A DNA stretch of 7,271 nucleotides from a virus (lineage: Duplodnaviria; Heunggongvirae; Uroviricota; Caudoviricetes), in IMG/VR virus record IMGVR_UViG_2706794698_000014; one strand, written 5' to 3'. Below, piece after piece: positions 2,970-7,192 of this stretch. The translations under genes were made by a program, and so were the position numbers. The stretch's first letter is position 1. Every line of letters begins with the position of its first letter. The notes beneath the pieces are model-generated. The model was not told where the DNA came from. It saw only the letters and a list, made by a program, of their open reading frames with translations, and did no database searches.

Positions 2970-3523
2970 TTCTCAATCTCTCGATGGCGCAGCGCAGCAG
3001 ATGCCAGTTGTTCAGGCNNNNNNNNNNNNNNNNNNNNNNNNNNNNNNNNNNNNNNNNNNNNNNNNNNNNNNNNNNNNNNNNNNNNNNNNNNNNNNNNNNN
3101 NNNNNNNNNNNNNNNNNNNNNNNNNNNNNNNNNNNNNNNNNNNNNNNNNNNNNNNNNNNNNNNNNNNNNNNNNNNNNNNNNNNNNNNNNNNNNNNNNNNN
3201 NNNNNNNNNNNNNNNNNNNNNNNNNNNNNNNNNNNNNNNNNNNNNNNNNNNNNNNNNNNNNNNNNNNNNNNNNNNNNNNCAGNNNNNNNNNNNNNNNNNN
3301 NNNNNNNNNNNNNNNNNNNNNNNNNNNNNNNNNNNNNNNNNNNNNNNNNNNNNNNNNNNNNNNNNNNNNNNNNNNNNNNNNNNNNNNNNNNNNNNNNNNN
3401 NNNNNNNNNNNNNNNNNNNNNNNNNNNNNNNNNNNNNNNNNNNNNNNNNNNNNNNNNNNNNNNNNNNNNNNNNNNNNNNNNNNNNNNNNNNNNNNNNNNN
3501 NNNNNNNNNNNNNNNNNNNNNNN

Positions 3524-3935: not shown

Positions 3936-4091
3936 TTACTTCCTGGATTCGTAGTCTACGAAGACAGCGACCTCCGTCTGGCCGGTTCGGATTCGTACCT
4001 CACAGAGGTCTTTCCTCGTTACCAGTGCCGTCACTATGACGGTTAAACAGATGACGATCAGGGCGATTAACATCGCCTTTTGCTGCTTCAT
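3936..4091 (-). CDS. hok: Hok/Gef-family type I toxin (small membrane toxin), 51 aa: MKQQKAMLIALIVICLTVIVTALVTRKDLCEVRIRTGQTEVAVFVDYESRK
   Basis: ATG at 4089-4091 with an AAGGAG Shine-Dalgarno 9 nt upstream; stop at 3936-3938. The first ~45 residues match HokD/RelF of E. coli Qin as I remember it, with a divergent C-terminus. The 70-aa ORF in the track is an in-frame upstream extension (mok-like). Confidence 0.85.
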   Translation of the reverse strand: MKQQKAMLIALIVICLTVIVTALVTRKDLCEVRIRTGQTEVAVFVDYESRK

Positions 4092-4139
4092 AGCCTGCTT
4101 CTCCTTGCCTTTCGGCATGTAAGAGGCTAACCTACATGT

Positions 4140-4215
4140 GCAAAGCATGAAATTGGCCTCAGATTAATGTTAAGCGTCTTGCCGGACGCGTAATGTTAAC
4201 TGGGGCTTTTCTCTA
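4140..4215 (+). ncRNA. sok: Hypothesised Sok-like antisense RNA opposite the hok leader and upstream (mok-like) initiation region; boundaries approximate
   Basis: Inference from hok-locus architecture. A possible plus-strand promoter (TTGCCT 4105-4110, 17-nt spacer, TAACCT 4128-4133) would give a transcript antisense to the upstream in-frame ATG at 4146-4148 and its GAGG Shine-Dalgarno. An imperfect hairpin around 4171-4194 and a T-rich run at 4207-4215 follow. No direct evidence of the RNA. Confidence 0.2.
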
Positions 4216-4267
4216 TCTGCCTTTTGGTGTTCATGCCTGAAGCAGATAGCCTCAAGCACCCGCAGTC

Positions 4268-4318: not shown

Positions 4319-5005
4319 TCACTCCTTCTCTTCTTTACCGTAGTGGAGTTGACCAATTTTGATAAGAGGGCGTCCCTGAGATTTGCGGTGTAGATTGGTA
4401 TCGCGCAGAGAATACACACAGCCACAATATTCCTGCTGATAGAATTTTTCGCGCTTGCTGATTTCAATCATACGGGACGAGCCGCCCTGCTTGCGCCAGT
4501 TATAATCCCAGTACACCATGCCCGGATAATGCGCGACGGCTCGCCGCCCACAGTCGTTAACCTGCTGCATATTTTTCCAGCGTGAAATGCCCAGTGAACT
4601 GCTGATCACACTGAAACCATTTTCAGCGGCGTACAGCGCTGTCCGCTCAAAACGCATGTCAAAACACATGGTGCAACGGATCCCTCGTTCGGGCTCCCAT
4701 TCCATTCCTTTGGCTCGTTCAAACCAGTTGTCTGTGTCGTAATCAGCATCAATAAACGGCACGCCGTGTTGTTCAGCAAAGCGAATATTCTCATCCTTAC
4801 GAATTAAATACTCTTTCTGAGGATGAATGTTCGGGTTGTAGAAAAAGATGGTGTAGTCGATTCCCGAGGCCTGAAGCGCCTCCATCACCTCACCGGAACA
4901 TGGAGCACAGCAAGAGTGCAGTAGTAGTTTGTTTGCCCCGTTTGGGAGCTCCAATTTGGGCCGTTTGAAATCAGCAACTGTCATAAATATGTTTATTGGG
5001 GTCAT
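4319..5005 (-). CDS. DUF208 / QueH-like protein (epoxyqueuosine reductase family homologue), 228 aa
   Basis: Translation contains [11 protein letters not shown] near the N-terminus, a central C-x-x-C (IRCTMCF) and a C-terminal EYCGC, which I recall as conserved cysteine motifs of the DUF208/QueH family. No clear Shine-Dalgarno before either ATG (5003-5005 or 4982-4984), so the start is uncertain. Confidence 0.5.
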
Positions 5006-5152
5006 AAAAATATCAAAGAGTGTAGCATTAGAACGGGGCTATCGGAAACAGATGTGTGACTGCTCCCCGCCCTTTCGGGTGGTCTCCTGATGATTTGAGG
5101 GTGCAGAAATCCCTCCGGTTAAGGATTAAATTTTTAACAGTGCTAAATTTAA

Positions 5153-5509
5153 TTATTCAGTTCTGGATTTTGTCGCCCTGCGTATCCGCGCTTTCGCGTT
5201 ACGCTCAATCTGTATCAGCTTTTCTATATTTCTCCGCCTTTCCTGTTCCTCCTGGCGCAATAGCCTTACATCATCTGCCAGTCTGGTTTCTCTTTTTGCC
5301 ACAGAGAGCATCCAGTCAAACGGCTCCACAACCGCACCGCAGATTTTACAGCGGACCTGACGCTCTTTTTCGTCAACCCGTACAGAGGCGTGATGGCAAT
5401 ATGGTCTTTCCGATGGCTCATAAAGAAAATTAACCTGATTACGAGGGTCATCCTCTTTTACCGGAAATAAAACGATATTGCTTAACTCATCTTCTGGTTT
5501 TATTTCCAT
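5153..5509 (-). CDS. Hypothetical zinc-ribbon protein with a basic coiled-coil C-terminus, 118 aa
   Basis: ATG at 5507-5509 preceded by a strong AGGAGAGGAG Shine-Dalgarno. C-x-H-H…C-K-I-C-G motif followed by an R/E/K-rich tail. The ORF-track start at 5566 (ATG directly abutting the upstream stop, TGAATG) is a possible but less likely start. Confidence 0.5.
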   Translation of the reverse strand: MEIKPEDELSNIVLFPVKEDDPRNQVNFLYEPSERPYCHHASVRVDEKERQVRCKICGAVVEPFDWMLSVAKRETRLADDVRLLRQEEQERRRNIEKLIQIERNAKARIRRATKSRTE

Positions 5510-5566
5510 GCTCCTCTCCTTTGATGCGAATGCCAGCGGTAATTGAAGCCTGATAGCTAATTTCAT

Positions 5567-5989
5567 TCACAGTATCGCCTCCTGAAAATTACCCTGATAG
5601 AAAGCCAGTACACGCTGCATAGCTTCGCTCTTCCGGCACTCGCGACAGATTATATTCAGGCGCCTGTCGTAGCGGCGTATTTCTCCGTCAGGTAATGACC
5701 AGATAAGGTCCGGATCAACAACAACCGGTTTCCTCACCTTTACTCTCGAGAGTTTTTTGCGGGCGCTTTGCCAGTCCTTGCGAGCCTGTTCAGACGGGAA
5801 TAAGCCGTAGCCAGAATTATATACATCACCACTTGCGACCAGTTCTATGCATAAGCGACCGACAGACGCACGACTGATACCTGTTTCATCTGACAACTGC
5901 CGAATCGTGACCCGACCGTCCTGATGCACGAGTTCCACAATTCGCGTCTTCAGTTCTTCCCGCTGTTCGGGAGTAAAAGGTTTCGCCAT
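5567..5989 (-). CDS. Hypothetical winged-helix/HTH DNA-binding protein, 140 aa
   Basis: ATG at 5987-5989 with an AGGAGG Shine-Dalgarno 6 nt upstream. Segment VTIRQLSDETGISRASVGRLCIELVASGDV looks like a helix-turn-helix. The family is not recognised. Confidence 0.55.
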   Translation of the reverse strand: MAKPFTPEQREELKTRIVELVHQDGRVTIRQLSDETGISRASVGRLCIELVASGDVYNSGYGLFPSEQARKDWQSARKKLSRVKVRKPVVVDPDLIWSLPDGEIRRYDRRLNIICRECRKSEAMQRVLAFYQGNFQEAIL

Positions 5990-6052: not shown

Positions 6053-6522
6053 TTAAAATTCACCCAGCGNNNNNNNNNNNNNNNNNNNNNNNNNNNNNNN
6101 NNNNNNNNNNNNNNNNNNNNNNNNNNNNNNNNNNNNNNNNNNNNNNNNNNNNNNNNNNNNNNNNNNNNNNNNNNNNNNNNNNNNNNNNNNNNNNNNNNNN
6201 NNNNNNNNNNNNNNNNNNNNNNNNNNNNNNNNNNNNNNNNNNNNNNNNNNNNNNNNNNNNNNNNNNNNNNNNNNNNNNNNNNNNNNNNNNNNNNNNNNNN
6301 NNNNNNNNNNNNNNNNNNNNNNGATAGCTGCCGCTAAGTGATTCTTCCCGGTACCAGGTTTTCCGCTGAACGCAAAATTTGTACACCCGGTCATCAGTTC
6401 ATCGGCGATGGATTTCGCCTGGCTTAACGCGTATCGCTGGCCGTCGTTCTGCACCTGGTAATTCGCAAACGAGCATTTACGGTGCAACGGCTGGATGCCT
6501 GAGCGATTCAGAATTTTTTCCA
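6053..6522 (-). CDS. DnaC-like helicase loader (AAA+ DnaC/IstB family), 3' portion. The frame continues into the masked block 6523-6772, where the true start must lie (a stop at 6773-6775 closes the frame just beyond the mask).
   Basis: Visible translation …LNRSGIQPLHRKCSFANYQVQNDGQRYALSQAKSIADELMTGCTNFAFSGKPGTGKNHLAAAI… aligns without gaps to E. coli DnaC residues ~57-119, including the Walker A motif GKPGTGKNHLAAAI. The M at 6487 in the ORF track is a TTG and is internal. Stop at 6053-6055. Confidence 0.8.
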
Positions 6523-6858
6523 NNNNNNNNNNNNNNNNNNNNNNNNNNNNNNNNNNNNNNNNNNNNNNNNNNNNNNNNNNNNNNNNNNNNNNNNNNNNNN
6601 NNNNNNNNNNNNNNNNNNNNNNNNNNNNNNNNNNNNNNNNNNNNNNNNNNNNNNNNNNNNNNNNNNNNNNNNNNNNNNNNNNNNNNNNNNNNNNNNNNNN
6701 NNNNNNNNNNNNNNNNNNNNNNNNNNNNNNNNNNNNNNNNNNNNNNNNNNNNNNNNNNNNNNNNNNNNNNNNTCAATAGCCTCCGGCTCGAATTTTTTAG
6801 ACGCTCGTTTTTGGCGAGGGGGAGATCAGTATTTAGATCTTCCTCTTCCTCTTCCTCT

Positions 6859-6928: not shown

Positions 6929-7192
6929 TTACTCGCTCGTTTGTAACCGCCCGTTTTTTTTAGAGCTTTTTCCGTTATGACGTTCAAAGTTAGGTAGAGA
7001 AAGCCCTCCGTCATTTTCGACCAGCCATCCAACCTGAATTAACGCATCAGCAAAACCAGACATAAAAGTGATGCGATCTATTGCACTTTTTGTAACGCCG
7101 CGAGCGTTACAATCTGCATTACCGTCTATCATTTGTTGATCCGCCCATGCCCAGAAGCGAATAACCTGAGGTAGCCTGAGTTTAACGGACAC
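6929..7192 (-). CDS. Phage replication initiator, N-terminal DNA-binding segment (lambda O-like by weak resemblance). The likely native start is the ATG at 7130-7132. The frame is interrupted at an A8 run and upstream sequence beyond 7166 appears to belong to an IS element.
   Basis: Open frame ending at TAA 6929-6931. The ORF-track start at 7192 is a GTG abutting its own putative Shine-Dalgarno and falls inside the IS end. The segment …KSAIDRITFMSGFADALIQVGWLVENDGG… loosely resembles the lambda O N-terminal domain (…KPMDRITDSQLSEITKLP…). A second frame continues from 6959 into the mask with no start codon (see findings). Confidence 0.4.
   Translation of the reverse strand: MSVKLRLPQVIRFWAWADQQMIDGNADCNARGVTKSAIDRITFMSGFADALIQVGWLVENDGGLSLPNFERHNGKSSKKNGRLQTSE
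7091..7111. repeat. Perfect palindrome TGTAACGC-CGCGA-GCGTTACA (8-bp arms, 5-bp spacer) sharing the same half-site as the 6859-6902 repeats
   Basis: Seen directly in the sequence. Candidate initiator or regulator binding site. Confidence 0.4.

Follow-up and report, generated by a model that had tools for sequence, protein, structure and literature searches.

The stretch of DNA considered here, hereafter the window, comprises 7,271 nucleotides of a virus of the Caudoviricetes (IMG/VR record IMGVR_UViG_2706794698_000014), and its minus strand carries, at 4319..5005, a gene for a protein of the QueH family. The family, its fold and its reaction are known, and the gene is already named in RefSeq, but a literature search found no description of a prophage-borne QueH, nor any study of why a phage keeps queH. 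We consider it likely that the gene encodes a functional QueH, that is, an Fe-S-containing, cobalamin-independent reductase of epoxyqueuosine (oQ) at tRNA position 34, which would have been captured once as phage cargo and would act on the tRNA of the bacterial host to yield queuosine (Q).

The queH Gene and Its Start Codon

The ORF list of the window contains an uninterrupted reading frame of 228 codons (stop included) at 4319..5005 on the minus strand, and the plus-strand translation of the same interval is broken by many stops. An earlier note on this DNA had described a 228-aa protein at these positions, leaving the strand unstated; the reading frame stands, and its beginning likely has to be moved inwards by seven codons. 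Translation probably starts at Met8, encoded by the ATG at 4984, so that the coding sequence would span 4319..4984 and specify 221 aa. This start is likely because the RefSeq/PGAP entry WP_012421537.1 begins at Met8, because the first ATG is replaced by ATT in Enterobacter hormaechei, which has the closest of the chromosomal homologues, and because the alignment with homologous proteins begins at residue 8-10. In base composition, queH does not differ noticeably from its flanks.

Other gene calls begin further downstream. The PHROGs family of the protein, phrog_3217, is listed as 'unknown function', and its profile begins at Met41 (window 4319-4885, residues 41-228), leaving out the CCAPC motif; several database representatives also start at the equivalent of Met41. 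Since such proteins would miss the CCAPC Fe-S ligands, gene calls from the internal Met41 are probably mis-started annotations. There is thus a practical annotation gap, in which phage resources give the protein an unknown function through a profile without the N-terminal Fe-S motif, and in which the copy carried by the isolated temperate phage HannyBb is annotated as hypothetical.

Family Membership, Cysteine Ligands and Predicted Structure

The assignment to QueH (PF02677, IPR003828 and COG1636, formerly DUF208) had been proposed in the earlier note from three cysteine motifs, with a profile search and an alignment to the crystallised Thermotoga enzyme as the means to check it, and it is borne out by both. 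The protein matches the Pfam QueH profile with 220.6 bits (E 1.9e-65) over positions 1-174 of 175, far above the cut-off of 23.5 bits. The homologue search, in which 1.84 billion proteins were scored, returned 4,755 representatives at E <= 0.001; the only relatives of solved structure are the entries for Thermotoga maritima QueH, among which 7lc5 is matched by phmmer at E 5e-22.

All three motifs are present on the minus strand: HSCCAPCS (residues 30-37, 4895..4918), C111-x-x-C114 (RCTMC, preceded by R110; 4664..4675) and EYCGC (residues 192-196, 4418..4432). In an alignment of T. maritima QueH residues 4-178 (taken from the PDB alignment) with 86 full-length representatives of 50%-identity clusters, C32, C33, C111, C114, C194 and C196 fall in conserved columns and correspond to C9, C10, C87, C90, C169 and C171 of the T. 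maritima enzyme, so that the six metal-ligand cysteines are retained. The same six residues are invariant in a 57-sequence alignment that reaches down to 35% identity, as are C36, N59, E65, R69, E106, R110, R118, K144, Q191, G195 and S199. Since C9S (9d86) and D13N (9dco) variants of T. maritima QueH exist in the PDB, C9 and D13 are taken as probed active-site residues. The last cysteine of the first motif, Cys36, lies at the position of Asp13. A cysteine is found there in 70 of the 75 aligned representatives, a motif census counts CCxPC 109 times vs three times for CCxPD, and the QueH of Staphylococcus aureus (35% identical) likewise reads HSCCAPCS; by these counts, T. maritima is the exception at this position and cysteine the family norm.

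The AlphaFold2 model built from the alignment has a pLDDT of 94.4 and a pTM of 0.89. Its top Foldseek match is 7lc5, with a target-normalised TM of 0.92 and an rmsd of 1.2 Å over 179 columns, and the next folds, namely TtuA-type tRNA thiolases and other adenine-nucleotide alpha-hydrolase proteins, stay below a TM of 0.6. The prophage protein thus shares with T. maritima QueH (7lc5, 7lc7, 9deu) the family, the fold at 31% identity, the six cysteines and the length of the core domain. It differs in Cys36, in being phage-borne rather than chromosomal, and in being longer by about 19 residues at the N-terminus and about 25 at the C-terminus, as are other proteobacterial QueH proteins. All the features of QueH that can be tested computationally (profile, six cysteines, seventh position and predicted fold) are found in the protein.

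Distribution in E. coli and in Phages

A match to queH is present in 995 of 5,426 complete E. coli genomes, nearly always at 95-99% identity, and at least 80% of the length of the gene is kept in 985 of the 995 carriers. Among the roughly 1000 complete E. coli genomes with the gene, each row inspected bears the annotation 'epoxyqueuosine reductase QueH'. The carriers include O157:H7, E. coli B (REL606, ATCC 11303), E. coli C, ATCC 8739, E. albertii and Shigella flexneri; in K-12 MG1655, relB-relE occupies the equivalent position of the Qin prophage, and QueH is not there. Because queG is found in all 5,426 E. coli genomes, the prophage QueH is, by gene content, a second reductase in this species and never a replacement.

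The genuine phage carriers that could be verified belong to this one lambdoid lineage only; for IMG/VR, the statement covers the best 80 of 216 matches, all of which belong to the same E. coli lineage. Distant 'Bacteriophage sp.' contigs of faecal origin, as well as 'Acinetobacter phage MD-2021a' (328 kb) and 'Staphylococcus phage SA 1306 Kay' (282 kb), were considered as further phage carriers of QueH and rejected as bacterial DNA filed as phage. The misfiled records OR844989.1, CAKLQH020000001.1, MT835504.1 and MT835608.1 contain chromosomal soxR, tadA, ABC transporters, argininosuccinate lyase, Tex and CorA.

Chromosomal Origin and Purifying Selection

The earlier note had regarded a QueH as unexpected on the grounds that enterobacteria use QueG for this step. 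This holds for E. coli, where queG is universal, and fails for other Enterobacterales, in which QueH proteins at 77-92% identity are widespread. The closest (91-92%) are found in Enterobacter hormaechei, Kluyvera and Scandinavium, and those at 77-87% in Erwinia, Pantoea, Serratia, Pectobacterium, Proteus and Providencia; further genera within the 77-92% range are Enterobacter, Kosakonia, Siccibacter, Dickeya, Brenneria, Rahnella, Ewingella, Photorhabdus and Sodalis. When the phage neighbours of the gene in the window were used as probes, phage context was detected at the queH loci of Escherichia and Shigella only. Ordinary chromosomal genes, housekeeping or metabolic, surround the gene at the five other loci inspected: in Erwinia it stands between purL and glrK-glrR-glnB, in Providencia between tmcA and purC-bamC, and in Scandinavium between genes for a short-chain dehydrogenase/reductase (SDR) and a metallo-beta-lactamase (MBL)-fold protein, while it adjoins a LysR regulator and an acetyltransferase in an Enterobacter-like contig and budAB in E. 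hormaechei. These chromosomal proteins are nearly identical to the prophage QueH in length and sequence and have the same CCAPC form, and their genes share its upstream -10-like element (see below); they differ in having, at the five loci inspected, no phage neighbours, the prophage copy being set between a DUF977 gene and hok/sok.

The phage copies group into a single clade of the neighbour-joining tree, which lies inside the Enterobacteriaceae beside Kluyvera, Scandinavium and E. hormaechei. As they are monophyletic and nested in this way, the simplest reading is that a lambdoid phage captured an enterobacterial chromosomal queH a single time and that mosaic recombination then spread it. In E. 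hormaechei, whose chromosomal queH is the closest non-phage relative, a 234-aa ORF of the phage integrase family lies immediately upstream of the gene (locus 5181-5885), which hints that queH may be mobile there too.

Pairwise comparisons between phage copies give dS values of about 0.15-0.18, dN of 0.006-0.018 and dN/dS of 0.037-0.105, and all copies are intact. Prophages that have decayed still hold an intact gene, an example being the Qin-like element of E. coli B, in which pseudogenes are among the neighbours. By these estimates, queH is under strong purifying selection and is selectively maintained.

The Prophage Context of queH

On the minus strand, the window reads, in order, a replication-initiation fragment (6929-7192), a partly masked ydaV-like ATPase gene, a DUF977/Ren-like gene (5567..5989; Pfam DUF977, phrog_142), a small zinc-ribbon ORF (5153-5566; weak match to phrog_1621, of unknown function), queH, hok/sok (3936..4261), a NinB-like DUF1367 gene (2370-2969), YbcO (2080-2370) and a Q-like antiterminator (1541-2083). 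This order agrees with the placement of the gene in the earlier note, in the nin region of a prophage between the replication genes and hok, and identifies the region as the early-right (nin-like) part of a lambdoid prophage.

The segment 3524-6069 is 99.9% identical to a prophage adjoining ybhA/modC in E. coli FDAARGOS_944. That prophage has, in this order, a cro/cI-type switch, ydaT, a ydaV-like replication ATPase, DUF977, the zinc-ribbon ORF, QueH, hokD, DUF1367 (NinB-like), YbcO and a Q-like antiterminator, after which come the genes for lysis and a tail and head module. Between the Q-like antiterminator and the lysis genes it carries four tRNA genes (Gly, Thr, Arg and Ile; locus 17621-17931), which are absent from the window.

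The DUF977 gene is the constant upstream phage neighbour of queH in every prophage version examined. The slot between the two genes is variable, holding the zinc-ribbon ORF here, a methyltransferase or a remnant in other prophages, and nothing in O157:H7. Downstream of queH, O157:H7 strain Z1768 has a DNA cytosine (Dcm-type) methyltransferase and an NgoMIV-family restriction endonuclease (locus 6806-8816) in place of hok/sok. Two marks of a cargo gene are therefore seen in queH, namely a non-phage origin, given by the nested clade, and variable immediate neighbours beside a constant DUF977. Read from these arrangements, the site is a cargo hot spot, of which hok/sok is one variable item.

A Conserved Promoter-like Element Upstream of queH

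When the 200 nt preceding queH were aligned between five phage and three chromosomal backgrounds, the sole invariant block was TGCTACA(C/A)T, and the DNA further upstream was unrelated between contexts. In the window, this block is a putative extended -10 element (TGcTACACT, 5019..5027, minus strand), 43 nt upstream of the Met8 ATG. The pattern TGnTAnnnT is present within 80 nt upstream of the gene at 24 of 79 genomic queH loci across Enterobacterales, as compared with 3.1% of control windows, with a concentration of positions between -40 and -50, where many of the remaining queH loci show a simple TACACT or TAAACT hexamer. As the element is common to phage and chromosomal copies, it suggests that queH brought its own promoter into the phage.

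Transcription from outside may be added to this. A scan found no terminator-like site between queH and the upstream early genes or flanking queH, and read-through from the early-right operon after induction is therefore likely. The 147-nt gap upstream of queH was also searched for a structured RNA or a terminator, and none was found (fold z-score of -1.46, unremarkable).

Proposed Function of the Prophage QueH

The following course of events is proposed. A Qin/Rac-like lambdoid lineage would have captured an Enterobacteriaceae queH once, with some 65 nt of the DNA that preceded it, and the gene would now be kept as cargo between the replication genes and a slot occupied by either hok or restriction-modification genes. 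In the lysogen, where queH may be expressed from its own promoter, host Tgt and QueA would first make epoxyqueuosine on tRNA-Asp, -Asn, -His and -Tyr, and the prophage QueH (EC 1.17.99.6) would then reduce the epoxide at position 34 to give queuosine without cobalamin. The metal site of QueH, in work by Li and co-workers of 2021, is reportedly a [4Fe-4S] cluster with an adjacent iron, which is consistent with the PDB entries, and in the prophage protein such a site would carry out the deoxygenation. Completion of queuosine would thereby become independent of external vitamin B12. Since QueG needs cobalamin and E. coli is unable to make cobalamin de novo, a plausible fitness benefit would be that queuosine is finished when corrinoids are scarce. 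The dependence of the QueG step on cobalamin is given in a passage of PMC4646009 that cites Frey et al. 1988.

The pathway that would supply the substrate is present in the E. coli/Shigella host, as queG, a marker of the same step, occurs in 5,426 of 5,426 E. coli genomes, and E. coli is described as running the full queuosine pathway (PMC5372724). As regards the substrate itself, the earlier note had allowed for host or phage tRNA, and the second possibility now appears unlikely. A search of the window found no tRNA gene, and the isoleucine, arginine, threonine and glycine tRNAs encoded by the sister prophage of FDAARGOS_944 are not queuosine substrates, so that the substrate would have to be host tRNA.

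QueG of E. coli (YjeS) shares with the prophage QueH the predicted reaction and substrate and co-occurs with it in every queH-positive E. coli genome, but it has an unrelated fold and needs cobalamin and two [4Fe-4S] clusters, and it belongs to the core genome (5,426/5,426) whereas QueH is accessory (995/5,426). A precedent for two oQ reductases in one genome is found in S. aureus, whose QueG and QueH differ in cofactor and in expression profile (PMC13443448); both genes are chromosomal there, while the second is supplied by a prophage here. Phage-borne chemistry of the queuosine pathway is likewise found in the 7-deazaguanine DNA clusters of phage 9g and its relatives (DpdA with FolE, QueD, QueE and QueC), but these clusters put preQ0-derived bases into DNA and do so without QueA, QueG or QueH (PMC6884629), whereas this prophage has QueH alone. 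A further parallel is the rRNA methyltransferase of a Shiga-toxin E. coli prophage, which is reported as another lambdoid prophage enzyme that modifies the host translation apparatus (PMC10810198); the enzyme class and the RNA target are different, and the likeness is a functional analogy only.

Several observations weigh against this proposal. Every E. coli genome has queG, which would make the prophage enzyme wholly redundant, and we know of no phenotype that separates epoxyqueuosine-tRNA from queuosine-tRNA, so that any benefit is conjecture. A search for queuosine-decoded codons found no enrichment, the NAU fraction being 0.54 in late and 0.54 in early phage genes vs 0.60 in a sample of host genes. 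As for the protein, no NCBIfam equivalog model matches it, Cys36 departs from the only crystallised enzyme, and the roles assigned to individual ligands rest on the names of PDB variants and on conservation. As for expression, no Shine-Dalgarno sequence was detected before either candidate start of queH, and a generic promoter scan of the minus strand upstream of the gene did not call the -10-like element, which makes the promoter an argument from sequence.

Alternative Explanations

The alternative that survives best keeps the enzyme and the substrate and shifts the role to the lytic cycle, where early-right transcription after induction would tune host tRNA for phage protein synthesis. Its setting is suggestive, since queH is co-oriented with the replication genes and the Q-like antiterminator, follows the upstream genes without an intervening terminator-like site, and is carried by the isolated phage HannyBb. 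Moreover, the oQ-to-Q step moves during infection in Shewanella, where queG expression goes up in response to phage, as does the Q/oQ ratio (bioRxiv 10.64898/2026.03.05.709803). On the other hand, a conserved promoter-like element shared with chromosomal copies lies directly upstream of the gene, queH stays intact in cryptic, non-inducible remnants such as that of E. coli B, and the late genes of the phage are not enriched in NAU codons. This role is a possibility that we hold only tentatively; it is compatible with action in the lysogen, and the two are not mutually exclusive.

It has also to be considered that queH may be a neutral passenger, acquired by illegitimate recombination and spread by the success of the prophage, without a selected function in phage or lysogen. 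The redundancy with queG would fit such a history, as would the lack of any phenotype, to our knowledge, that distinguishes epoxyqueuosine from queuosine, and the position of the gene in a mosaic cargo hot spot beside selfish modules (hok/sok, restriction-modification genes and methyltransferase remnants). However, a dN/dS of 0.04-0.10 at a dS of about 0.15-0.18, with all copies intact, is not what a passenger would be expected to show, and 985 of 995 carriers hold at least 80% of queH while its neighbours are often pseudogenised or replaced. The low dN/dS and the intactness of the gene in degraded prophages therefore disfavour neutrality, and we regard a passenger as improbable.

Finally, a QueH fold turned to another substrate, be it 7-deazaguanine in phage DNA or another epoxide or nucleotide, would find some encouragement in the use of 7-deazaguanine chemistry on DNA by phages (PMC6884629) and in the binding of free GMP and queuosine in QueH crystals (7lc7, 9deu), but is very improbable given that the protein shares 77-92% identity with chromosomal QueH and retains all invariant family residues, that DpdA/TGT, QueC, QueD, QueE and FolE genes are absent from the 52 annotated features of the 33-kb prophage and its ends and from the window ORFs, that PADLOC defence models match neither QueH nor its three neighbours, and that neither QueA nor QueG nor QueH was found by a 2019 survey in phages whose DNA carries deazaguanines (PMC6884629). 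A role in anti-phage defence was considered too and rejected on the same PADLOC result. The suggestion of the earlier note that the gene might be a diverged paralogue acting on another deazaguanine substrate is left unsupported for the same reasons, the gene being under strong purifying selection rather than diverged and lacking TGT/DpdA or preQ0-synthesis partners.

Implications for Queuosine Modification in E. coli

Taken further, the reductase activity proposed for the prophage QueH might make it, through transcription from a promoter of its own, a lysogenic-conversion factor in about 18% of E. coli strains, one that uncouples the maturation of queuosine-tRNA from the supply of vitamin B12; at present we would call this a speculative extension, with the odds against it. 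If it were true, carriers and non-carriers would differ in tRNA wobble chemistry and in NAU/NAC decoding when corrinoids are scarce, and the differences may extend to stress or virulence traits or to sensitivity to tRNA-targeting toxins. The protein would then be, as far as the literature found goes, the first enzyme of the queuosine-tRNA branch to be described from a phage.

Activity of the enzyme would in itself have consequences. About one fifth of E. coli genomes would possess a B12-independent route to queuosine, K-12 being without it at the equivalent prophage position, and a prophage-delivered difference in tRNA modification would exist among laboratory strains (REL606, E. coli C, ATCC 8739) and pathogens (O157:H7, Shigella flexneri, E. 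albertii). The auxiliary genes of phages would extend to the queuosine-tRNA branch, which was empty in the 2019 survey of phage deazaguanine genes (PMC6884629). Such strains would also provide a natural system in which to ask whether the epoxide-to-alkene step (oQ vs Q) matters physiologically. If, by contrast, queH is a silent passenger, the finding is an ordinary one.

Other Features of the Window

The hok/sok locus directly downstream of queH is a complete type I toxin-antitoxin system on the minus strand. Its hok ORF (3936-4148) matches Pfam HOK_GEF, sok (4086-4261) is recognised by Rfam RF01794 with 117 bits, and a promoter-like site lies beside them at 4297-4268.

Masked runs of N occupy 514-778, 3018-3279, 3283-3523, 6070-6322 and 6523-6772 and cover parts of a TolA-like ORF, of the ORF between hok and DUF1367 and of the ydaV-like replication gene. 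As none of the complete E. coli genomes covers at least 80% of the window, its sequence is, on this comparison, a lambdoid mosaic. The TolA-like ORF itself is on the minus strand at 152-850 and is partly masked. It follows the Q-like antiterminator, at a place that the sister prophage gives to its four tRNA genes, and the C-terminal 119 residues of its product match the C-terminal domain of TolA (PF06519, E 1.5e-23).

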